A stretch of 57,877 bases of DNA from Minisyncoccia bacterium (GCA_038259265.1 JBBSOY010000002.1:1-57877), one strand, 5' to 3'. Shown: positions 38,605 through 54,675, counted from the stretch's first letter. A program made the numbers and translations. The notes: generated by a model from the letters alone, not told the origin.

Positions 38605-40353
38605 ATGAAAAATATCCGAGAAATAATTGCAGATGAGTTCAAAAAAATCGGCCTGGAAGTTTTGCCGGCTGATTTGGATTTGCCTAAAAATCTCGCAAAT
38701 GGCGATTTTTCTATTTTTATAAAAGATACAGCTGTCGATCCTTTAAAACTGCCGCTCGAAAAGATTTCAGGAGCAGAGACTCAATCGAACGAGCAAGCGC
38801 ATGAATACATTCAGTCAATTGAAGTTGCTGGTCGCTTTTTAAATATTCGTTTATCACCAAAATTTTTTGCAGATGTACTCAAAGAAAATCTTGCGTCCGG
38901 AGCGGCTGGGGTTGGATTTGGCCGAAATCAAAATCTCGCTGGCCAAAAAATTCTTATTGAATACACTGACCCGAATCCGTTTAAAGAACTCCATATCGGC
39001 CACATGATGAGCAATACGATTGGTGAATCGCTCTCGAGAATCATCGAATGGAATGGTGCGGATATTGTGCGTGCGTGTTATCAGGGCGATGTTGGGCCGC
39101 ATATTGCTAAGGCGATCTGGGGCATACAAAAGCTGGCGGCTGAACGACCAGCTGAAGAAAAAACCTTGGCTGAAAAAAGTGCTTTCATTGGCAACTCGTA
39201 TGTTGCTGGTTCTGCTGCGTATGAAGACGATTCAGAATCAAAAAAAGAAATCGATGTCATCAACAAAGCGATCTATGAAAAAACGGATTCGGAAATAAAC
39301 GACCTCTATACGTGGGGCAGAAAAGTCAGCCTCGATCGTTTTGAAGAAATTTACAAAAAGCTCGGCACCAAATTCGACTATTATTTTTTCGAAAGCGAAA
39401 CGGCGCCGCTCGGACTTTTTATTGTTGATGAACTTTTGGGTAAGGGAATTTTGGAAAAGAGCGACGGTGCGATTGTGTTTAAGGGTGAAAACTATGGTTT
39501 GCATACTCGAGTCTTTGTAAATTCCCAAGGCTTGCCGACCTACGAGACAAAAGAGCTCGGCCTCACGAAAATGAAGTTTGATCGGATCAATCCAGATCAG
39601 TCTATTGTCATTACCGGCAACGAACAAACTGATTATTATAAAGTCATCGTTAAAATTCTCGAATTCTACGACCATCGAGCAGGGAATCGCACGCGTCACA
39701 TTGGTCACGGCATGCTTCGTTTTGCTGAAGGAAAAATGTCGTCTCGAAAAGGCAACGTCGTGACCGGCGAATCGCTCATTGCTGATGTTGAAAAACGGGT
39801 TGCGGAAAAAATTCAGGAAAGAGATTTTTCTGCAGAAGACAAAGCTACAATCGCCGAAATTGTCGCTATTGCTGCCATTAAATATTCAATCCTCAAGCAA
39901 GCACCCGGCCGCGACATTATTTTTGATTTTGAAAAGTCACTTTCTTTTGAAGGTGACTCTGGTCCGTACCTTCAGTACACCCACGCTCGTATCTGCTCGA
40001 TCCTCCGAAAAGCCGAAGAAGAGGGAATTGTGGCGTCTGTTGGTGGTGTTATTGAAGATTCACAAAATGCCCCGAACTCTGCAAGTTTCGTCGAAGAGCC
40101 TGGCGAACTTGAGCATTTACTTATCCGAATGCCAGACGTTGTTGAACGAGCTCAAAAAGAATTAGCGCCACAGCTCATCGTGACGTACGTTACCCAGCTT
40201 GCTTCAGCTTTCAATTCGTACTACGCAAACAACACGATCCTCTGTGACGACAAAGATATTTCTGCGTACCGTGTCGCCCTTGCTTCAGCTGTGAAAAATG
40301 CTCTTGCGAGTGGTCTCTATCTCCTCGGCATCAAAGCGCCGCAGCGAATGTAG
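38605..40353 (+). CDS. argS: arginine--tRNA ligase
   Basis: PNPFKELHIGHM (HIGH) and a C-terminal ...YLLGIKAPQRM ending. 582 aa. Confidence 0.9.
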   Translation: MKNIREIIADEFKKIGLEVLPADLDLPKNLANGDFSIFIKDTAVDPLKLPLEKISGAETQSNEQAHEYIQSIEVAGRFLNIRLSPKFFADVLKENLASGAAGVGFGRNQNLAGQKILIEYTDPNPFKELHIGHMMSNTIGESLSRIIEWNGADIVRACYQGDVGPHIAKAIWGIQKLAAERPAEEKTLAEKSAFIGNSYVAGSAAYEDDSESKKEIDVINKAIYEKTDSEINDLYTWGRKVSLDRFEEIYKKLGTKFDYYFFESETAPLGLFIVDELLGKGILEKSDGAIVFKGENYGLHTRVFVNSQGLPTYETKELGLTKMKFDRINPDQSIVITGNEQTDYYKVIVKILEFYDHRAGNRTRHIGHGMLRFAEGKMSSRKGNVVTGESLIADVEKRVAEKIQERDFSAEDKATIAEIVAIAAIKYSILKQAPGRDIIFDFEKSLSFEGDSGPYLQYTHARICSILRKAEEEGIVASVGGVIEDSQNAPNSASFVEEPGELEHLLIRMPDVVERAQKELAPQLIVTYVTQLASAFNSYYANNTILCDDKDISAYRVALASAVKNALASGLYLLGIKAPQRM

Positions 40354-40467
40354 AATTTCACTAAAATATGAACGTTATTCACCCAATGCCAGAAGAACAA
40401 GTTATTCCATTTTGTATTTGAGGAAAACTTTATTTTTTCATGAATTGTGCTTCAGTACTTTTTATTG

Positions 40468-40998
40468 ATGTCAAAAAAAGAAGTTGTTGAAGGCACCGTT
40501 AATCCAGAAATTATTAAGGAAAAGATTTATATCGTTCGTGGTAAAAAAGTAATGGTTGATCGCGATTTAGCAATATTATACGAAGTTCCTACAAAGGCAC
40601 TTAATCAGGCAGTCAAAAGAAATTTAAAAAGATTTCCACCAGATTTCATGTTCAGATTGACCACTGAGGAAGAAGAATATGTGCGGTCACAATTTGTGAC
40701 CGCACATGCGAATAAAAACAGAGCCCGGGTTTCTGCCTTTACCGAACAAGGCATTGCTATGCTTTCAAGTGTACTTAAGAGCGAAAGGGCCATCGCTGTA
40801 AATATTCAGATCATAAGAATTTTCACCAAGATTCGGGAGATGGTCGATGCGTATAAAGAATTGCGAGAAAAAGTCGAAGAAATGGAGAAAAATAATGAGA
40901 CAAATTTCTCAGAGATATTCAGGATAATTCGCCACCTGATTCATGAAGAAAACACGCAAAATGATATAATTGGATTTAATACCAAAAATAATAATTAA
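40468..40998 (+). CDS. ORF6N (KilA-N-related) DNA-binding domain protein
   Basis: KIYIVRGKKVMVDRDLAILYEVPTKALNQAVKRNLKRFPPDFMFRLT...AFTEQGIAMLSSVLKSERA is the typical ORF6N signature. Confidence 0.8.
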   Translation: MSKKEVVEGTVNPEIIKEKIYIVRGKKVMVDRDLAILYEVPTKALNQAVKRNLKRFPPDFMFRLTTEEEEYVRSQFVTAHANKNRARVSAFTEQGIAMLSSVLKSERAIAVNIQIIRIFTKIREMVDAYKELREKVEEMEKNNETNFSEIFRIIRHLIHEENTQNDIIGFNTKNNN

Positions 40999-41001
40999 TC
41001 T

Positions 41002-41478
41002 ATGCGACACGCTACAAATTGTTTTCTCATCGATGACGAAAAAGGCACGATTCTGCTTTCGATGAAAAAGCGCGGTTTAGGGGTGGGAAAATGGAATGGA
41101 GCGGGTGGCAAAGTAGCTGAAGGTGAGACTGCACTCAAAACCGCGGCCAGGGAAGTGAAAGAAGAAATCGGCGTGGCGGTCAAAGCTGATGATTTGGAAA
41201 AAGTTGCCGAAATTATCTACACCAATCCCGATCCGAACTGGGGTATGAGCGTCGACGTTTTTATTGCCCGCAACTGGCGTGGCACACCGGAAGAAAGCGA
41301 AGAAATGAAACCCGAATGGTTTGAGCTTGAAGAAGTTCCGTATGGCCAAGCCTGGCCTGACCTCGTTCACTGGCTGCCGCGGCTGCTCGTTGGCGAAAAA
41401 CTCAAGGCAAATTTTGTATACAAAGAAGACGGCGAATTGCTCGATACGTTCGAGGTCGCAGTCGTGGATGGGTTCTAA
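41002..41478 (+). CDS. NUDIX hydrolase (MutT-like)
   Basis: Nudix box GGKVAEGETALKTAAREVKEEIGV. It starts 3 nt after the ORF6N stop. Confidence 0.8.
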   Translation: MRHATNCFLIDDEKGTILLSMKKRGLGVGKWNGAGGKVAEGETALKTAAREVKEEIGVAVKADDLEKVAEIIYTNPDPNWGMSVDVFIARNWRGTPEESEEMKPEWFELEEVPYGQAWPDLVHWLPRLLVGEKLKANFVYKEDGELLDTFEVAVVDGF

Positions 41479-41481
41479 CTA

Positions 41482-41510
41482 TTGACTTTTTATATAAAAT
41501 AAAGTTTAAT
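41482..41510 (+). promoter_or_regulatory. sigma70-type promoter of cassette 2
   Basis: TTGACT, a 17-nt spacer, then TTTAAT (or TAATAT at 19 nt). Confidence 0.45.
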
Positions 41511-41585
41511 ATACAAAGAATTCTTTGACCGCGAACTGTTCGTGGTTTTAGTAATCAGTGTTTTTTTCAAAAGGAGGATGACGCA

Positions 41586-41990
41586 ATGGTATCAAAAACC
41601 AGGACCCCATCAGAATGTATTAGCGCAGGACAGATTGGTCAGATCCAGGATCGGATCGGTACCGCTCTCCGAATGAGCGGTCTCCATAACGATCAGGTTC
41701 AACAAGTTCTCCAGACAAAGGGCCGAGGAGACCGGATGATCGAAGATATGATCACTGTGGTCCGCAAGTTCGTTGAGGCAAGGGCGAGCGAGATCGTCCG
41801 TCGGGTCAAGGTGGATCGCACTCTTCAACCCAAGGAGATGCTCGACGCTCTCGGTCGGAAACAGTACACCAATAAGGACGTGGTCAATACCATGCCCCGA
41901 GGCGAAGGTGAGGAAGTCGATGTCGTCTTCTTTAAGCCCGAGCCGGAGGAGTACACTCGGCCTGGCTTCATGAGCGGAACCGGATCATGA
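41586..41990 (+). CDS. cassette 2, upstream ORF (134 aa, paralogue of 33886-34305)
   Basis: Strong SD AAGGAGG. Conserved blocks shared with copy 1. Ends at TGA 41988-41990. Confidence 0.6.
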   Translation: MVSKTRTPSECISAGQIGQIQDRIGTALRMSGLHNDQVQQVLQTKGRGDRMIEDMITVVRKFVEARASEIVRRVKVDRTLQPKEMLDALGRKQYTNKDVVNTMPRGEGEEVDVVFFKPEPEEYTRPGFMSGTGS

Positions 41991-42219
41991 CAAAGCCCTC
42001 GAGCGCCGTAGCCTCAAGCCCGACCCCTATGCCCAAGCCCAGGCTAACAAGGAAGATCCTGCTTTCGCAGATGAGCGCCCCAACTGCAGTCAATGGAAGG
42101 ATGGTGACTCCTACCGCTTCGCCACGTTCAACCGTTGGCGCGGCAAGCGCGAGGTGAACGTCAACCGCGACGACTACGACTGGAGCGACGGCTGGTGGTT
42201 GTCCGGTGTTCCCAAGTAG
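41974..42219 (+). CDS. cassette 2, linker plus Trp-rich C-terminal module in the +1 frame (no start codon)
   Basis: AEPDHDKALERRSLKPDPYAQAQANKEDPAFADERPNCSQWKDGDSYRFATFNRWRGKREVNVNRDDYDWSDGWWLSGVPK. There is no ATG, GTG or TTG anywhere before the conserved block. The frame opens right after a TGA at 41971. Confidence 0.5.
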   Translation, partial: AEPDHDKALERRSLKPDPYAQAQANKEDPAFADERPNCSQWKDGDSYRFATFNRWRGKREVNVNRDDYDWSDGWWLSGVPK

Positions 42220-42311
42220 TTCTTGGGACTTTGTCACTGAGGTCTTTTGGACCCTTTGTTCTTAGTCCTTCGGCGATTTTCGCCACACGTATTCCAAACG
42301 TAAACAATGGA

Positions 42312-42401: not shown

Positions 42402-45400
42402 ATGGCTGATATCCATACTAAAACTCCTACAAAAAGCCCCGTCGCTTTGGCAGAAGAACAGGTCTTGGCCTTTTGGCGCGAGAAAAATGTGTTTCAAAAG
42501 ACGCTCGACAAAGCGGCGCCGAACGGCAACTATGTTTTTTATGACGGTCCGCCGTTTGCGACTGGTTTGCCGCATTACGGCCACATTTTAATTAGCGCAA
42601 TCAAAGACGCTGTGCCGCGTTACCAAACGATGTGCGGCAAGCATGTTGAACGCCGCTGGGGTTGGGATTGTCATGGTTTGCCGATCGAAAATATTGTTGA
42701 AAAAGATCTGAAAGTTTCTGGCAAAAAAGAAATCGAAGCGCTCGACATCGATGTCTTCAACGAATACGCTCGCAGCCGCGTGCTCGACTTCGCCGATCAT
42801 TGGAAAACGACAATCGAACGCATCGGCCGCTGGGTTGACTATGATGGTGGCTATAAAACGATGGACAACACATTCATCGAATCCGTCTGGTGGGGGCTCA
42901 AAAATATTTGGGATAAAAATTTAATTTACGAAGGCACGAAAGTTTTGCCGTATTGCCCACGCTGCGAAACGCCAATTTCTAATTCGGAAATTGCTATGGA
43001 TGGATCGTACAAAGACATCACTGACATTTCGGTTTATGTAAAACTCGCGCTCGTCGATGAACCGAAAACTTTTCTAATTGTTTGGACGACAACGCCTTGG
43101 ACTTTGCCTGGCAACACTGCTGCGGCCGTAAACGCCGAGCTCGACTACGTTCTCGTAAAATCGGGCGACGAATATTTTATTGTCGCAAAAGACAAGACAA
43201 GTATTTTTAAAGAAAAGTTTGAGATTGTCGAAGAAATGAAGGGAAGTGAGCTTGTCGGTAAAAAGTTCAAGCCGCCGTTTGATTATTTTGAAAACAAGCC
43301 GCTGCCGGGAAAAGAAAACGAAACGAATCGCGAAAATGCCTGGAAGGTATACGCCGCGCCGTACGTTACTGCCGAAGCCGGTTCCGGTATCGTTCATTTG
43401 GCGCCTGCGTACGGCGAAGAAGACATGGCGCTCGCTCGCCAGTTCAACATTCCGTTCATTCGTCACGTCGGTTCGGATGGAAAATTTACGACAGACGTTA
43501 CAGACTTTGTTGGTCTTAAGGCAAAACCAAAAGAAGATCATCAGTCGTCTGATGTGCAGATAATCAAAAACCTCGCGGCTCGTGGTGTGCTTTTTGCAAA
43601 AGAAAAAATTATCCATTCATATCCACATTGTTACCGCTGCGAAACACCGCTTTTCTATTTCGCAATTCCTGCGTGGTTTATCAAAATCCAGGACGTCAAA
43701 AAGGAACTCATAAAAAATAACGAAGACATTACCTGGATTCCTGAGCATTTGAAGCATGGCCGTTTTGGCAAAACCATGGAAGGTGCGCCGGACTGGAATA
43801 TTTCTCGCAATCGTTACTGGGCATCGCCCTTGCCGTTTTGGAAGTGTGACCATTGCGCCGAAACCCTTTGCATTAGCTCGCTCGAGGATATTAAAAAACA
43901 TGCACCAGCTCGAAACACCTATGTGGTCATGCGTCATGGCGAAGCGGAGCACAACCTGACCGACACGGTGAGTTGTCTCGTCACCGACAAAAATGGTTTG
44001 ACCGAAAAGGGTAGAAAAGAAGTGACCGAATCAGCGAAAAAACTCGCAGCAAATCAGGTGGCTGAAGGCGAGGCTTCGTCGAAAGAAAAAGTCAGTTTTA
44101 TTTATGCATCAGATTTAGTCCGAGCAAAAGAAACGGCGGAAATTGTTGCTGCTGAGCTTGGTTTGTCTTCGGACAAAATCGTCTACCTTCCAGATCTCGG
44201 CGAACTTCGGGCAGGAATTTACAACGGCAAAACCTGGACGGAATATCGAAAGTCGTTTGCGAAACCTGAAGATCGTTTTGAAAAAGCACCCGAGGGCGGC
44301 GAAACACTCACCGACATGCGTAACCGCGTTGTAAAAACGCTTTACGATATCGAGCAAAAACATGCCGGCGAAAACATTCTCATCATCAGTCACGGCGAAA
44401 ATATTTTCTTTTTGGAGAATGCCACAGGCGGCGCTTCGAAACAGGATCTGATTTATTCATTTATTCATAAATCAGAATTCCTCGGTACTGGCCAGTCTCG
44501 GCCGCTTGATTTCGCTCCAATTCCGCACAATAAAAATTTCGAACTCGATTTTCATCGACCGTATATCGATGAAATAGTTTTTGCGTGCCAGGGAGCGGGA
44601 GGAAATTCTGGCAGTGGGGCAGGGTCGGGCAAATGCGGAGGCACCATGCGACGTATCCCCGAAGTCGTCGACTGTTGGCTTGAATCTGCTTCCATGCCAT
44701 TTGCTCAAAACCATTATCCGTTCGAACACAAAGAACGATTTGAGAAAAACTTTCCGGCGGATTTTGTAGCCGAATATATTTCCCAGACTCGAACCTGGTT
44801 TTATTATATGCATGCAATTTCGACCATCCTTTTCCAAAAAGCACCATTCAAACATGTGCTGACCACGGGCATCATTGTCGCGGAAGATGGGGAAAAAATG
44901 TCGAAGTCGAAAGGTAATTTCCCCGACCCTCAGCGTTTGTTCGACAAATATGGCGTTGATGCGCTCCGTTTTTACATGCTCAGTTCGCCGCTTGTGAAAT
45001 CTGAAGATCTGAGCTTCACTGAAAAAGGCGTCGACGAAGTCTATAAAAAAATAATCCTCCGCCTCAAAAATACGCTGACTTTTTACGAAACGTATCGCGG
45101 CGAGAGTCGCAAGACAGAAGATCGACTCGTTTCAAAGCATGTGCTCGATCGCTGGATCATCGAACGCATGAACCAGGTGATTTCTGAAGTGACCACCAAC
45201 ATGGAAGCCTATGTGCTCGATCGTGCGCTTTTTGAAATTGACGGGTTTATCGAAGATCTGTCCGTGTGGTTTTTGCGTCGTTCGCGAGAGCGTCTCAAAA
45301 GCGAAAACGAAATCGAACGCAACGAAGCACTCGATACATTTTATTGCGTGCTCGTAGATTTGGCGAAAATTATGGCGCCTTTTACGCCTTTTTTGGCCGA

Positions 45401-46001
45401 ACAGCTATACGCAGCGCTCGATGCTCATGCGGACGGTGGCACAGAAAGTGTTCATTTGGAAGAATGGCCGGATTCGCGCCTTACGCCGGTTGAAGACGTC
45501 GTTATTTTGTCTGACATGATGGAAACTCGTCGCATCGTCAGTCTTGCGCTCGAAGCTCGTGCGAAAGCGAAAATAAAAGTCCGTCAGCCGCTTGCGAAAC
45601 TTGTGGTGAAAACGACGACCCTCGAAAACAAACAAGAATATCTCGATTTAATTCGCGACGAAGTGAACGTCAAAGAAATCGAATTTGATACAGAAATTGT
45701 CGACGAAGTCGTGCTCGATACCGACATCACTCCAGCTTTGCAGGAAGAGGGAAATGTCCGCGAGCTCGTTCGAGCGATGCAGGATCAACGAAAGAAAGCA
45801 GGTTTGAAGGCCGGCGACCAGGCCGAAATTTCTGTTCGAGCAAACGAAATGGGTAAAACATTTATTTTAAAATTTGAATCAGAACTTAAAAAATCCGCAC
45901 TTCTTTCGAACATTATTTTCACCGAAGAAAAACATGTCGAAACCGACGAAACTATTTCAATCGAAGGTATGGAATTTGTGTTTAGAATTAACGGGAATTA
46001 A
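42402..46001 (+). CDS. ileS: isoleucine--tRNA ligase with inserted histidine-phosphatase domain
   Basis: PPFATGLPHYGHIL (HIGH), KMSKS, DWNISRNRYW, DFHRPYIDE and CGGTMRRIPEVVDCW. The start is at MADIHTK (42402); the ORF-track extension back to 42135 overlaps cassette 2. See the finding for the insertion. Confidence 0.9.
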   Translation: MADIHTKTPTKSPVALAEEQVLAFWREKNVFQKTLDKAAPNGNYVFYDGPPFATGLPHYGHILISAIKDAVPRYQTMCGKHVERRWGWDCHGLPIENIVEKDLKVSGKKEIEALDIDVFNEYARSRVLDFADHWKTTIERIGRWVDYDGGYKTMDNTFIESVWWGLKNIWDKNLIYEGTKVLPYCPRCETPISNSEIAMDGSYKDITDISVYVKLALVDEPKTFLIVWTTTPWTLPGNTAAAVNAELDYVLVKSGDEYFIVAKDKTSIFKEKFEIVEEMKGSELVGKKFKPPFDYFENKPLPGKENETNRENAWKVYAAPYVTAEAGSGIVHLAPAYGEEDMALARQFNIPFIRHVGSDGKFTTDVTDFVGLKAKPKEDHQSSDVQIIKNLAARGVLFAKEKIIHSYPHCYRCETPLFYFAIPAWFIKIQDVKKELIKNNEDITWIPEHLKHGRFGKTMEGAPDWNISRNRYWASPLPFWKCDHCAETLCISSLEDIKKHAPARNTYVVMRHGEAEHNLTDTVSCLVTDKNGLTEKGRKEVTESAKKLAANQVAEGEASSKEKVSFIYASDLVRAKETAEIVAAELGLSSDKIVYLPDLGELRAGIYNGKTWTEYRKSFAKPEDRFEKAPEGGETLTDMRNRVVKTLYDIEQKHAGENILIISHGENIFFLENATGGASKQDLIYSFIHKSEFLGTGQSRPLDFAPIPHNKNFELDFHRPYIDEIVFACQGAGGNSGSGAGSGKCGGTMRRIPEVVDCWLESASMPFAQNHYPFEHKERFEKNFPADFVAEYISQTRTWFYYMHAISTILFQKAPFKHVLTTGIIVAEDGEKMSKSKGNFPDPQRLFDKYGVDALRFYMLSSPLVKSEDLSFTEKGVDEVYKKIILRLKNTLTFYETYRGESRKTEDRLVSKHVLDRWIIERMNQVISEVTTNMEAYVLDRALFEIDGFIEDLSVWFLRRSRERLKSENEIERNEALDTFYCVLVDLAKIMAPFTPFLAEQLYAALDAHADGGTESVHLEEWPDSRLTPVEDVVILSDMMETRRIVSLALEARAKAKIKVRQPLAKLVVKTTTLENKQEYLDLIRDEVNVKEIEFDTEIVDEVVLDTDITPALQEEGNVRELVRAMQDQRKKAGLKAGDQAEISVRANEMGKTFILKFESELKKSALLSNIIFTEEKHVETDETISIEGMEFVFRINGN

Positions 46002-46603: not shown

Positions 46604-47269
46604 GTGCACTATCACGTTTACAACACCGAAGGTCTGATCCTCGGCGGCGCGCCCTCGGGGGAGTCGAGTCGGTACATGTATGTGTTTACAAAAGATCTCG
46701 GGCTTGTGGGGGCACATGCGCAAAACACCCGGCATGTGACGTCGAAACTTCGCTATGCACTCGATGCACCGTCGCGTTCGCACATGTCGCTCATTCGTGG
46801 CAAAAACATGTGGCGCATCAAAAGTGCAATGCCAGACAAACGCTACGCGGCAATTTTTCGCACACATCAAGAAAAATATCTGCTCTGTGTTCGGACATTT
46901 TCATTGCTTAAAAAATTGCTCGCCGGCGAAGAAGCGAATCCGGAGCTTTTTGATCTCATTAATAATTTTCTTGAGTTTTTGGAGCAGACAAAAGAATACG
47001 AAATTCTGCCCGACGGTCAGCCGGATGAATTCGATGAATTTTTTGGTGAAAAAGGAAAAAATGAACTTGCTCTCGAGGGGCTCAAAAATCTCGAAGCGAT
47101 TTTGCTTTTGCGAATTTTGAACCTCCTGGGATATGTTCCAGTGAACGAATTAACCGTGCAATTTGCTCAGGGGTCAGAATGGAATTCGGAAATTGCCGCC
47201 GCCATGGGGTCGCGACGCAAAGAGGCGATTGCTATCATCAACGAATCCCTCCGAGCGTCACATTTGTGA
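46604..47269 (+). CDS. recO: DNA repair protein RecO (probable)
   Basis: The size and the N-terminal OB-like segment (TEGLILGGAPSGESSRYMYVFTKDLGLV) fit RecO. GTG start. Confidence 0.45.
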   Translation: MHYHVYNTEGLILGGAPSGESSRYMYVFTKDLGLVGAHAQNTRHVTSKLRYALDAPSRSHMSLIRGKNMWRIKSAMPDKRYAAIFRTHQEKYLLCVRTFSLLKKLLAGEEANPELFDLINNFLEFLEQTKEYEILPDGQPDEFDEFFGEKGKNELALEGLKNLEAILLLRILNLLGYVPVNELTVQFAQGSEWNSEIAAAMGSRRKEAIAIINESLRASHL

Positions 47270-49278: not shown

Positions 49279-50679
49279 ATGAAACATTCAGAAAAGAAAA
49301 ACGCTGACCAAGAAAATGGCAGCATGGAACATATTATTTCGCTCGCCAAGCGTCGCGGTTTTATTTTTCCTGGTTCAGACATTTATGGCGGCCTTTCCGG
49401 CACGTGGGATTGGGGACCGCTCGGCGTGGCTCTTAAAAACAACATTAAAAAGCTCTGGTGGAGCCGGTTTGTCGAAGCGCGAGACGACATGTTTGGCGTC
49501 GATGCGGCTATTTTAATGAATCAAAAAGTATGGAATGCCACTGGCCATGTTGCCAACTTTTCAGATCCGCTCGTCGAATGCACAAAATGTAAAAAGCGTT
49601 TTCGGGCTGATCAGCTCGGCTCGGGTGACGCTGATGTAAAAAGCGATGCAGCTGGCAGTGGTGGGAAAAAATGTCCGGACTGCGGTGGTGCCTTGAGCGA
49701 GCCGAAGCAATTCAACATGATGTTCAAAACGAACATAGGTGCAGCGCAGGATGATGCGTCCGTTGTGTATCTTCGCCCTGAAACCGCTCAGGGTATGTTT
49801 GTGAATTTTAAAAACATTCTCGACTCGCTGCATCCAAAATTACCGTTTGGCATGGCTCAGATCGGCAAAGCATTTCGAAACGAAATTGCGCCGCGTGATT
49901 TTATTTTCCGTACTCGCGAATTCGAGCAAATGGAAATCGAATATTTTGTGCACGAAAAAAATTGGTCGGAGCAGTTTGAAATCTGGCGAAAGGAAATGCA
50001 TGCATGGATGCTGAGCCTCGGCCTTGATGCGGCAAAAATCCACGAACTCGACGTGCCAGCGGAAGATTTGGCACATTATTCAAAAAAGACCATTGATTTT
50101 GAATACGAATTTCCTTTTGGCAAAAAAGAGCTCTATGGTTTGGCTTACCGAACTGATTTTGATTTGAAAAACCACAGTGAAGCAAGCCGTGTCGATCTTT
50201 CGTATTTTGATGAAGAAACAAAAGAGCGTTTTGTGCCGCATGTCATCGAACCAACCTTCGGCCTCGACCGAACCGTGCTCGCAGTGCTTTGTGAAGCCTA
50301 TTGCGAAGATGCGATGGGTTCGGAGGTTGCTTCTGGTGAAAAAGCCGAGAAAACTGAAACCCGCGTATTCTTAAAATTGCCAGCGCACCTTGCGCCGGTC
50401 AAAGTCGCTGTCTTTCCTCTGCTTAAAAATAAACCGGCGCTTGTTGAAAAAGCCCGTGAGGTTTTTGCTGAAATCCGTAAAGTTGCACCGAATGCGATTT
50501 TTGACGACAACGGCAACATTGGCAAACGCTATCGCCGCCAAGACGAAATCGGTACACCATTTTGTGTGACCATCGACTTCGATACTATTGAAAAAGACGG
50601 CACGGTCACGCTGCGTGACCGTGACACCGGCAGCCAGAAACGCATTGAAATTTCAAAGCTCATCTCTGAAATTTCCTAA
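49279..50679 (+). CDS. glyQS: glycine--tRNA ligase (class II, dimeric type)
   Basis: KRRGFIFPGSDIYGG..GTWDWGPLG, FRNEI.PR..IFRTREFEQME and the C-terminal anticodon-binding region. Confidence 0.9.
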   Translation: MKHSEKKNADQENGSMEHIISLAKRRGFIFPGSDIYGGLSGTWDWGPLGVALKNNIKKLWWSRFVEARDDMFGVDAAILMNQKVWNATGHVANFSDPLVECTKCKKRFRADQLGSGDADVKSDAAGSGGKKCPDCGGALSEPKQFNMMFKTNIGAAQDDASVVYLRPETAQGMFVNFKNILDSLHPKLPFGMAQIGKAFRNEIAPRDFIFRTREFEQMEIEYFVHEKNWSEQFEIWRKEMHAWMLSLGLDAAKIHELDVPAEDLAHYSKKTIDFEYEFPFGKKELYGLAYRTDFDLKNHSEASRVDLSYFDEETKERFVPHVIEPTFGLDRTVLAVLCEAYCEDAMGSEVASGEKAEKTETRVFLKLPAHLAPVKVAVFPLLKNKPALVEKAREVFAEIRKVAPNAIFDDNGNIGKRYRRQDEIGTPFCVTIDFDTIEKDGTVTLRDRDTGSQKRIEISKLISEIS

Positions 50680-53178: not shown

Positions 53179-54675
53179 TTGAAACCTTTCTACATCACGA
53201 CAACTTTACCGTACGTTAATTCCGACCCACATGTAGGTTTCGGTATGGAAATAATTCGGGCAGACATTGTTGCTCGATACAAGAAACGTTCCGGTTTCGA
53301 AGTTTTTTTCAATACAGGGACAGACGAACACGGCATAAAAATTTATCGAAAAGCTGTCGAAAACACAAAAACTCCGCAGAAATATGTCGACGAATACGCG
53401 GCAAAATTTAAAAACTTGCTTCCTGTACTTGGGGTAGGAATAGGCGAGGGGGCTGTGCCCGTTCATTTCATCCGCACGACCGATGCACAGCATGTCGCAG
53501 CGGCGCAGGAGTTTTGGCGCCGCTGCGACACAGCCGGCGACATTTACAAGAAAAATTATAAGGTCAAATATTGCGTCGGCTGTGAGCTCGAAAAAACCGA
53601 GTCCGAACTGGTCGACGGCCGTTGCCCGATCCACCCGAGCCAAGAGCTTGAAAGTATCGAAGAAGAAAATTATTTTTTTGCTTTTTCAAAATACCAACAA
53701 CGCTTGCTCGATCTATACGCTGCCACTCCAGATTTTGTAGTACCAGCGTCACGTCTTGGTGAAATCAAAGCGTTTGTCGAACGCGGACTCGAGGACTTTA
53801 GTATCTCGCGTCTTGCTTCCAAAATGCCTTGGGGTGTGCCAGTTCCTGGCGACGAAAAACAGGTCATGTATGTGTGGTTCGATGCGCTCGTGAGTTATAT
53901 TTCGACTCTTGGCTGGCCTACGGTTGCTGGCGATTTTGAAAAATTCTGGGTCGAGTCTGGCGGCGTCGTGCAGTATTGTGGCAAGGACAATCTTCGTCAG
54001 CAGTCGGCGATGTGGCAAGGCATGCTTATGTCGGCAGGGCAGCATTCGCCAGAACTTATTGCCTCGCGACAGATCATCATCAACGGTTTCATTACGTCGG
54101 GTGGTAAAAAAATGTCGAAAAGCGAAGGCAATGTCATTGATCCCATCACCGTTGTGAACGAATATGGCGCCGAAGCCTTTCGGTATTACGTCGCGCGTGA
54201 ACTTCATCCGTTCGAAGACAGCGATTTCACCATGGAAAAATTCAAGAACGCCTACAATTCACATCTGGCAAACGGCCTCGGCAACCTCGTGAGCCGCATC
54301 ATGAAAATGTCTTCAACGAATCTCTCTCATGATACATCTAATTCATCCATCAGCACCTCTTTGTTTGAAATGTCTGAAATGCAATTTCCAGTCGAATACA
54401 GAAAAGCGCTCGATTCGTACGACATCCAGGCCGCGGCAAACATTGTGTGGTCCCACGTTGGCGCGCTCGATGCGACGATTCAGGAAACTGCCCCTTTTAA
54501 ACTCGTAAAAACCGACAAAGCCGCCGGACTAAAAATTATCGAAGATTTAGTTGTGCGACTTTTTGCGATTGCCCATATGCTTCAGCCGATCATGCCCGAA
54601 ACTGCTGCAAAAATAATTGCATTGATACAGGCAAACGCCGCTCCCGAGGCGCCTCTTTTTCAAAGAAAAGACTAA
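53179..54675 (+). CDS. metG: methionine--tRNA ligase
   Basis: TTTLPYVNSDPHVGF (HIGH-type), Zn knuckle CVGCE...CPIH, and KMSKS. TTG start per the ORF track. Confidence 0.9.
   Translation: MKPFYITTTLPYVNSDPHVGFGMEIIRADIVARYKKRSGFEVFFNTGTDEHGIKIYRKAVENTKTPQKYVDEYAAKFKNLLPVLGVGIGEGAVPVHFIRTTDAQHVAAAQEFWRRCDTAGDIYKKNYKVKYCVGCELEKTESELVDGRCPIHPSQELESIEEENYFFAFSKYQQRLLDLYAATPDFVVPASRLGEIKAFVERGLEDFSISRLASKMPWGVPVPGDEKQVMYVWFDALVSYISTLGWPTVAGDFEKFWVESGGVVQYCGKDNLRQQSAMWQGMLMSAGQHSPELIASRQIIINGFITSGGKKMSKSEGNVIDPITVVNEYGAEAFRYYVARELHPFEDSDFTMEKFKNAYNSHLANGLGNLVSRIMKMSSTNLSHDTSNSSISTSLFEMSEMQFPVEYRKALDSYDIQAAANIVWSHVGALDATIQETAPFKLVKTDKAAGLKIIEDLVVRLFAIAHMLQPIMPETAAKIIALIQANAAPEAPLFQRKD

Follow-up and report, generated by a model that had tools for sequence, protein, structure and literature searches.

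Results

The ileS gene of the window

The DNA that we analyzed is a stretch of 57,877 nucleotides from a Minisyncoccia bacterium (GCA_038259265.1 JBBSOY010000002.1:1-57877), which we call the window; positions are counted from its first nucleotide. The window contains a gene, ileS (42402..46001, + strand), encoding a type 2 isoleucyl-tRNA synthetase (IleRS) 1199 amino acids (aa) long with a histidine-phosphatase domain nested within it. The open reading frame (ORF) is continuous from the ATG at 42402 to the stop codon at 46001. The mechanical ORF reaches upstream to a TTG at 42135; the ATG start (MADIHTK...) agrees with homologues and with the database gene call, and the extension from the TTG is probably not translated. 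There is no second ileS in the window and no other histidine-phosphatase gene. We take this gene to be the housekeeping IleRS of a Parcubacteria/Paceibacteria bacterium of the candidate phyla radiation (CPR).

The assignment as type 2 is based on the continuous ORF, a match to TIGR00392, and best matches in the Protein Data Bank (PDB) that are type 2 enzymes (IleRS2). Pfam searches with the protein found tRNA-synt_1 (E 1e-123), Anticodon_1, and DUF5915. The NCBIfam model TIGR00392 (ileS; cut-off 621.4 bits) gave 824.7 bits, split between two stretches that flank the inserted domain. The best solved relatives by sequence are the type 2 IleRS of Priestia megaterium (8c8u; E 2e-218) and those of yeast, Candida, and Thermus. 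As homologues we used the best 120 clusters listed by a full-length search, which are 50-74% identical to the window protein and 1022-1292 aa long. The full-length model, made by AlphaFold2 with these homologues, had a predicted local distance difference test (pLDDT) score of 90 and a predicted template-modeling (pTM) score of 0.85. Comparison of this model with the PDB by Foldseek gave target-normalized template-modeling (TM) scores of 0.82 to 8c9d and 0.91 to 1ile; this search returned synthetases only and no match for the insert.

The signature elements of the synthetase follow one another on the + strand. The class I HIGH signature is HYGH at aa 58-61 (42573..42584), with H58 and H61 at least 90% conserved in the 120 homologues. 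The editing-site motif WTTTPW of the CP1 domain lies at aa 228-233 (43083..43100), where W228, T229, T230, T231, and W233 are invariant, and the isolated IleRS editing domains 1wk8 and 1ue0 match aa 202-409. The end of CP2 and start of CP3 (43791..43862) comprise DWNISRNRYW (aa 464-473) and the first Cys knuckle, CDHC (aa 482-485). CP3 resumes with DFHRPYID at aa 716-723 (44547..44570), which pairs with ELHKPYVD of 8c8u and contains the invariant residues D716, H718, and D723. This is followed by the second Cys knuckle at aa 728-747 (44583..44642) and by KMSKS at aa 832-836 (44895..44909), which is at least 90% conserved. Anticodon_1 (aa 916-1065) and the type 2 C-terminal DUF5915 (aa 1103-1192) occupy 45147..45977.

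The second knuckle, usually of the form CxCGG, contains a Gly/Ser-rich loop, ACQGAGGNSGSGAGSGKCGG, at window positions 44583-44642. Among the 120 homologues the long form of this loop is found in the window protein and two relatives only (P0102, P0103, P0109), with shorter expansions in three others, and it is predicted to be disordered (pLDDT <50 at aa 734-741). The expansion reported in the original prediction is therefore real and idiosyncratic (3/120 homologues); in our view it is a stretch of low complexity without special importance. The knuckle itself is variable. Its four cysteines (C482, C485, C729, C745; 43845-43856 and 44586-44636) occur in only about 77 of the 120 homologues (C482 in 78, C485 in 76), and all four positions are substituted in about a third. 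Because so many homologues lack these cysteines, zinc binding at the CP3 knuckle is dispensable, even though the knuckle frames the insert.

The insert carries a complete histidine-phosphatase domain

The inserted segment comprises aa 488-715 (43863..44546, +) and consists of a short leader helix, a histidine-phosphatase core, and a return linker. It lies between the two Cys pairs of the CP3 knuckle (C482/C485 and C729/C745) and has no counterpart in 8c8u. Alignment with 8c8u paired query residues 18-502 with 14-479 and residues 714-1159 with 485-915, so that approximately 211 residues replace approximately 5; it also bears out the 20-30 aa that had been given as the normal spacing between the knuckle and HRPY. 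CP3 is a variable connector, bearing a zinc knuckle, that leads from CP2 to the second half of the Rossmann fold. The CP3 subdomain and its variability among IleRSs have been defined previously (PMC7191050).

Positions 43911-44540 translate in frame 0 without stop codons into RNTYVVMRHGEAEHN...PHNKNF (aa 504-713). The motifs that had first drawn attention to this segment, like the Gly/Ser loop, are all where they had been placed: YVVMRHGEAEHN (aa 507-518), LTEKGRKE (aa 533-540), SDLVRAKETAEIV (aa 570-582), GGETLTDMRNRV (aa 632-643), and ILIISHGENI (aa 659-668). Pfam recognized a His_Phos_1 (PF00300) core at aa 508-668 (43923..44405, +) with E 1.4e-26 and 93.8 bits when the whole protein was used and E 1.8e-28 and 100 bits when the insert alone was used; the gathering threshold is 21.7 bits. 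The absence of such a profile match had been named as what would overturn the idea of a nested phosphatase. With a continuous ORF and the PF00300 match nested within the PF00133 match, the architecture is an in-frame insertion of a histidine-phosphatase domain into a type 2 IleRS rather than a fusion at a terminus, as proposed. The GC content of the insert (0.46-0.50) is the same as that of its flanks.

The insert has every element of the superfamily's catalytic set: the RHG motif, one more Arg, one more His, and an acidic residue as proton donor. The RHG motif (43932..43940, +) consists of R511, the predicted phospho-acceptor H512, and G513. The second Arg of the phosphate pocket is R574 (44121..44123, +), within SDLVRAKETA; the predicted proton donor is E601 (44202..44204, +); and the second pocket His is H664 (44391..44393, +), within ILIISHG. 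A surface loop of low complexity within the phosphatase (aa 555-560, AEGEAS region; 44064..44081, +) has a pLDDT <50 and is not conserved. The return linker, aa 671-715 (44412..44546, +), contains a helix (aa 680-688) and a strand (aa 699-702), and its residues F704, P708, H709, and N710 are at least 90% conserved. We rejected an intein or homing element, since Pfam found no Hint or endonuclease domain and H709-N710 is followed by Lys rather than Cys, Ser, or Thr.

In the full-length model the insert had pLDDT values of 88-97, except for the surface loop at aa 555-560, and when modeled alone it had a pLDDT of 90.9. In both the whole protein and on its own it is predicted to fold as an independent α/β domain. 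The best PDB match of the insert model was PhoE (1H2E; Foldseek E 2.7e-13, TM 0.73, 27% identity). Small PGM-like phosphatases, TIGAR, GpgP, PspA, and CobC came next, and there were more than 250 superfamily matches after PhoE.

We compared the insert with curated NCBIfam models. Models for cofactor-dependent phosphoglycerate mutase (dPGM) fell below their cut-offs: dPGM_arch scored 41-45 bits against 225, pgm_1 23.9 against 81.7, PRK01295 36-40 against 316, and GpmB 33-38 against 261. Phosphoglycerate mutase was rejected as the identity of the domain because every dPGM and GpmB score was far under its cut-off. CobC (58-63 bits against 162.9), SixA (31-33 against 74.5), and PspA (38-43 against 350) were rejected on the same grounds. 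Because the best structural match is PhoE and the NCBIfam scores are below cut-off, the insert is a PhoE-like branch 1 histidine phosphatase that lies outside every characterized subfamily. Thus, the earlier label of a PGAM (phosphoglycerate mutase)-type domain holds for the superfamily and not for the mutase, the closest solved structure being the broad-specificity phosphatase PhoE. PADLOC gave no match to the insert and hence no link to a defense system.

The nested domain is conserved across a lineage of synthetases

All 120 of the best homologues of the window IleRS contain PF00300. They come from sources with names such as Parcubacteria, Zambryski-, Taylor-, Nomura-, Vogel-, and Pacebacteria/Paceibacterota. 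Scanning GTDB species genomes by pattern, we found 28 ileS loci that bear the insert, with IleRS identity to the window enzyme down to approximately 37%; the carriers include Zambryski-, Colwell-, Harrison-, and Brennerbacteria, Paceibacteria, and others. The occurrence of the insert in related CPR genomes, proposed as a check, is thus confirmed in both sets. An exhaustive HMMER search with the insert gave 4577 matches at E <= 1e-3 and 378 at E <= 1e-10, and the best 150 were mostly IleRS, full-length or fragmentary, with the domain at about aa 480-710. A word-indexed search with the 228-aa insert found free-standing phosphatases only and missed the window's own protein, so negatives obtained with a sub-domain query by that method are unreliable. 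Many of the insert-bearing proteins are named by NCBI merely as 'class I tRNA ligase family protein' or 'hypothetical protein'.

The length of the insert is steady at 203-232 aa across the 120 homologues. Its mean column conservation is 0.49, compared with 0.73 and 0.61 for the two halves of the synthetase. Residues R511, H512, G537, S570, R574, E634, R642, and H664 are invariant in the insert, and E601 (119/120, with Asp in the other one), N518 (118/120), and G513 (115/120) are nearly so. From what is established for the superfamily, the conserved residues would make up the phosphate pocket and would include the His that accepts the phosphoryl group and the residue that donates the proton. 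Since the pocket residues are nearly invariant though the remainder of the insert diverges more than the synthetase, the pattern indicates that a catalytic function has been maintained.

Histidine-phosphatase domains occur at other IleRS sites and in valyl-tRNA synthetases

Additional copies of the domain occur elsewhere in some IleRSs. In the 1419-aa protein P0306 a second His_Phos domain separates the catalytic core from the anticodon-binding domain. The truncated 1087-aa protein P0308 has one His_Phos domain immediately after the second knuckle and another past the HYPF(E/A)N loop, together with the first part of a third where the anticodon-binding domain begins. These extra sites imply several independent insertion events.

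The domain is also found in valyl-tRNA synthetases (ValRS). We examined P0261, which served as the query, and 119 relatives (P0372-P0489 among those listed), from metagenome-assembled genomes named Gracilibacteria and Peregrinibacteria. One to four copies of His_Phos_1 were present in 71 of these 120 proteins. P0261 itself has four, the last cut off at the end of the protein. Most copies begin about 26 residues past WxISRQ and ahead of DxWFxS, a site homologous to the CP3 site of the window enzyme, and a minority precede WxISRQ. Every complete additional copy that we examined had the full catalytic set. In a rough neighbor-joining tree the four P0261 domains form a cluster of their own, which suggests that they arose by internal duplication, and they lie apart from the IleRS CP3 inserts.

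Other foreign domains were observed in CPR synthetases. P0340, a 1066-aa protein annotated at JGI as 'isoleucyl-tRNA synthetase', contains three extra in-frame domains. Its editing domain encloses a REP-associated/IS200-like tyrosine transposase domain at aa ~326-472, which at 81 bits just passes the NF047646 cut-off of 80; CP3 holds a His_Phos domain, and the HFPFEN loop is followed by a GNAT domain. It stops short of KMSKS and may be a truncated, chimeric, or pseudo-synthetase. Precomputed Pfam tables list PF04480 in the ValRSs P0395 and P0430 and PF00216, a HU-like DNA-binding domain, in P0404. CPR class Ia synthetases seem to be unusually tolerant of in-frame insertions.

A free-standing phosphatase gene adjoins ileS in related genomes

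In the window, ileS is anchored upstream by argS (38605..40353, +), which encodes an arginyl-tRNA synthetase (Pfam tRNA-synt_1d and DALR_1), and downstream by recO (46604..47269, +; Pfam RecO_N and RecO_C). The order argS - x - ileS - recO is common to the window and loci L001-L025 and L034-L040; the DUF11-like gene that follows recO in the window is also shared with relatives.

The closest free-standing relatives of the insert are 189-221 aa long and 32-39% identical to it. Those with adequate flanks are P0003, P0004, and P0005, on seven contigs, and their genes lie immediately 3' of argS; the contigs of P0002 and P0009 end short of ileS. At the five loci whose contigs reach far enough (L034, L035, L037, L039, and L040) the phosphatase gene is upstream of an ileS that has no insert and encodes, in complete copies, approximately 977-995 aa. 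On L034, L037, L039, and L040 this ileS is followed by recO and then the DUF11-like gene, matching the order in the window. On L037, argS, the phosphatase gene, and ileS are spaced by 2-3 bases; at other loci the phosphatase gene and ileS are separated by a Fic or PaaX_M-like gene. When the window IleRS was compared with these loci by tblastn, aa 505-692 matched the separate gene and aa 18-501 and 718-1157 matched the contiguous ileS.

The free-standing phosphatases adjacent to ileS group with the IleRS inserts in the rough neighbor-joining tree, which carries no support values. Motifs common to the insert consensus and the free-standing proteins are NKYY(I/V)xRHGEA, LTEKG, SxLxRxxxTAEIV, DxRLRE, and KNILIISHE. 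Two other apparent relatives do not belong with this group: P0011 is a piece of a frameshifted insert-bearing ileS, and the gene for P0041, a weaker free-standing match, is away from ileS. From these data we infer that the insert was derived from the adjoining phosphatase gene, which moved into the CP3 loop in an ancestor of the insert-bearing lineage. The existence of separate and fused states within one gene order argues for a functional link between phosphatase and synthetase.

The two forms differ in charge. The inserts of the 120 homologues are acidic, with a mean net charge of -5 and an isoelectric point (pI) of 5.9, and the free-standing phosphatases (P0002-P0006 and P0009) are strongly basic, with a mean of +13 and a pI of 9.2. 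The basic form may reflect binding to a partner or to RNA, the free protein finding its partner by charge; equally, it may reflect genome composition.

The stretch that separates ileS from argS, or from the phosphatase gene, is variable. In the window (40447-41990) it contains genes for an ORF6N protein, a NUDIX hydrolase, and an unknown 134-aa ORF, and in L034, L035, L039, L040, and L047 it contains genes for Fic/RhuM proteins, a PaaX_M-like protein, or an RHH protein. This interval looks like an integration hot spot.

Other features of the window

The ORF6N protein (40447-40998, +) is a strong PADLOC match to the candidate defense family PDC-S05 (E 2.4e-55), and the NUDIX protein (41002-41478, +) is a weak one to PDC-S07 (E 4.5e-12). 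GC content rises to 0.56-0.59 at 41650-42250, compared with approximately 0.45 around it, a segment that covers the 3' part of the 134-aa ORF and the ileS leader. Beyond argS (38605-40353), the window has synthetase genes at 49279-50679 and 53179-54675: one for a class II enzyme (tRNA-synt_2b and HGTP_anticodon) and one for a further class I enzyme, whose KMSKS region (54067-54255) is a weak tblastn match to IleRS aa 817-881.

Discussion

Possible function of the nested phosphatase

We favor, with moderate confidence, the view that the window gene encodes a bifunctional IleRS2 whose nested PhoE-like phosphatase is active, came from a gene adjacent to ileS, and works with the synthetase. The insert would be an active phosphomonoesterase using the two-step mechanism of the superfamily via phospho-H512. 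In this scheme the phosphoryl group would be taken up by H512 and held in place by R511, R574, and H664, together with N518, with E601 serving as the acid/base. The work of the phosphatase would be tied to that of the synthetase, since fusion would ensure a 1:1 stoichiometry and nearness to a ligand bound or released by the synthetase. That there is a functional link is argued by the repeated association of this domain with two paralogous class Ia enzymes and by its occurrence as both a neighbor of ileS and an insert. Because the same domain family sits in varied loops of IleRS and ValRS and in varied copy number, the link would more plausibly involve tethering and stoichiometry than precise geometry or channeling. 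The substrate class that we favor is a phosphomonoester on a nucleotide or on the acceptor end of tRNA, such as a 2'- or 3'-terminal phosphate that blocks charging; this is a guess in which we place little confidence. The original prediction put forward the turnover of adenylates or ApnA, among others, as candidate roles.

A bolder version of this idea, which we consider rather doubtful, is that CPR bacteria have a previously unrecognized step in tRNA charging in which a synthetase-tethered phosphatase, on IleRS in Paceibacteria and on ValRS in Gracilibacteria and Peregrinibacteria, strips a blocking phosphate from a bound ligand. A candidate ligand would be a tRNA whose CCA end is 2'- or 3'-phosphorylated or pyrophosphorylated, so that repair or detoxification would be coupled to aminoacylation. 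The repeated independent insertions would then reflect selection for the coupling of repair to charging.

Several results weigh against an active phosphatase that works with its host enzyme and came from its neighbor. None of the NCBIfam models of defined substrate (CobC, dPGM, PspA, SixA, GpmB) comes near its cut-off. The acidic nature of the insert (net -5, pI 5.9) disfavors direct RNA binding by the domain itself. Its presence in several loops and in two to four copies is also consistent with fusion that lacks mechanistic coupling. As to origin, the ileS genes with an adjacent phosphatase encode enzymes just ~36% identical to the window enzyme, and because the separate and fused states are so deeply diverged the direction of the event is only inferred; the neighbor-joining tree that groups the two, as stated above, has no support values. 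Finally, no phosphatase gene was found beside any of three insert-less valS loci, and this limits the argument from neighboring and fused states to ileS.

The main rival is that the phosphatase is a hitchhiker: an ordinary housekeeping or metabolic enzyme caught in a permissive loop, acting on a soluble substrate unrelated to aminoacylation. Candidates would be broad-specificity sugar-phosphate, phosphoserine, or nucleotide phosphatases, kept by drift and co-expression in very small genomes. We judge this less probable than the favored reading, and nonetheless a serious contender. Both fold and sequence are nearest to generic small phosphatases (PhoE, GpgP, PspA, CobC) rather than to any specific family, and the occupation of unrelated loops by multiple copies suggests that precise geometry is unneeded. 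In addition, no part of IleRS is more variable or permissive than CP3 (PMC7191050), and the other unrelated domains in CPR synthetases (GNAT, REP-type tyrosine transposase, PF04480, HU-like) point to a general tolerance of insertion. However, this domain family has come together independently with two paralogous synthetases of class Ia, each in a different CPR class, and for ileS it occurs as neighbor as well as insert; this exceeds what a single accident would produce. Moreover, the order argS-phosphatase-ileS persists despite the genes that have been inserted between.

It is unlikely that the insert is a regulatory phosphoprotein phosphatase comparable to SixA, PGAM5, or Sts-1, with the synthetase or a translation factor as its target, for example to counter toxin kinases. 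From what is known of the superfamily, the short cap (aa 602-632, from the proton donor to GGE) suggests a pocket open to macromolecules, and in two lineages Fic-domain genes adjoin the gene for the free-standing phosphatase. On L034 and L035 the phosphatase and Fic genes flank a 56-aa ORF, which may be the Fic partner. Yet the Fic genes resemble variable cargo, the neighborhood has no conserved kinase partner, and the SixA model scores 31-33 bits against a cut-off of 74.5. Nor do we know of any established phosphorylation of a bacterial IleRS or ValRS.

We consider it very unlikely that the domain is a non-catalytic module serving as a structural spacer, an oligomerization surface, or a phosphate-sensing or ligand-binding regulator. 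Pseudo-enzymes are frequent in the histidine phosphatase superfamily, and the insert diverges faster than the body of the synthetase (0.49 versus 0.61-0.73). Against this, the five pocket residues and N518 are invariant or nearly so in the 120 homologues and are present in all complete extra copies; selection has evidently focused on the catalytic pocket, and pure binding would not need E601.

An artifact or selfish element, that is, an assembly chimera, a frameshifted gene pair, or an intein-like mobile insertion, is scarcely credible, for although CPR genes are known for inteins and introns and the gene on a related contig (L041) is broken by frameshifts, the same continuous architecture recurs in 28 genome records and in over 120 clusters whose assemblies and sources are independent, the composition of the insert equals that of its flanks, and its fold is that of a phosphatase.

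Significance

Aminoacyl-tRNA synthetases are among the best-studied enzymes, and extra domains at their termini are well known in eukaryotes. What is unusual here is that a housekeeping synthetase of bacteria harbors within its catalytic domain a complete second enzyme, seemingly active, and that this architecture is conserved across a major uncultivated lineage of ultra-small bacteria. The original prediction knew of no described case. That holds for solved IleRS structures and for the papers that could be searched: the full-text literature, which does not cover subscription journals, yielded no account of any synthetase, ValRS included, that bears a histidine-phosphatase domain. It does not hold for automatic Pfam tables, which already flag the domain across the lineage. 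The domain pair in such tables, the IleRS-GNAT precedent in NCBIfam, and the presence of accessory domains in synthetases are already known.

Interest is raised by the intact pocket, the evidence from neighboring and fused genes, and the parallel evolution in IleRS and ValRS. The pairing of argS, phosphatase, and ileS provides a concrete evolutionary route to the insertion. It also poses a testable question about translation in CPR bacteria, since both the separate and the fused forms can be expressed. On the practical side, the vague names given by NCBI mean that metabolic reconstructions could miss the IleRS or ValRS of these organisms, and the CP3 loop, being naturally permissive, offers a place where domains could be engineered into synthetases of class Ia.

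Comparison with known systems

The window enzyme resembles the IleRS2 of Priestia (8c8u/8c9d) and Thermus thermophilus (1ILE) in its HIGH and KMSKS signatures, CP1 editing domain, zinc knuckle of the CP core, CP2, CP3 Cys knuckles, anticodon-binding domain, and DUF5915. It differs from these solved enzymes in that approximately 210 extra residues forming a complete enzyme domain are present in CP3, where they have approximately 5, and in its disordered Gly/Ser second knuckle. The insert, in turn, resembles PhoE (YhfR) of Geobacillus stearothermophilus (1H2E/1EBB) in fold, pocket residues, and length (~200 aa), and neither has the C-terminal tail of dPGM. Unlike PhoE, which is free-standing, it is nested in another enzyme and has a return linker of ~45 aa.

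A curated precedent for an IleRS with an extra enzyme domain is NF040702 (ileS_w_GNAT, 'isoleucine--tRNA ligase, N-acetyltransferase domain-containing'). The window protein is unlike it, scoring 314 bits against a cut-off of 1999 and having no acetyltransferase match in Pfam; the domain family is different. The best NCBIfam phosphatase model for the insert (E 2e-20) is that of the Rv2228c-type RNase H/acid phosphatase (NF005567, PRK07238), which is likewise a CobC/PhoE-like histidine phosphatase fused to an enzyme of nucleic acids. In that case the fusion is end to end and the partner enzyme is another one, and the insert, at 70-73 bits, falls well below the cut-off of 326 and outside the family.

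Two further parallels are found within the CPR. The ValRSs with His_Phos_1 (P0378, P0381, P0261) have the same domain family, the full catalytic set, and mostly the homologous CP3 site; they belong to another synthetase and another lineage, their one to four copies are in tandem or dispersed, and they do not group with the IleRS CP3 inserts. The free-standing phosphatases of Paceibacteria (P0003, P0004, P0005; for example in a Candidatus Staskawiczbacteria metagenome-assembled genome) differ from the insert in being encoded by separate genes of 189-221 codons next to an insert-less ileS and in having a pI of ~9.2 rather than 5.9, but they are 34-39% identical to it and share with the window both the motifs of the domain and the order argS...ileS-recO.

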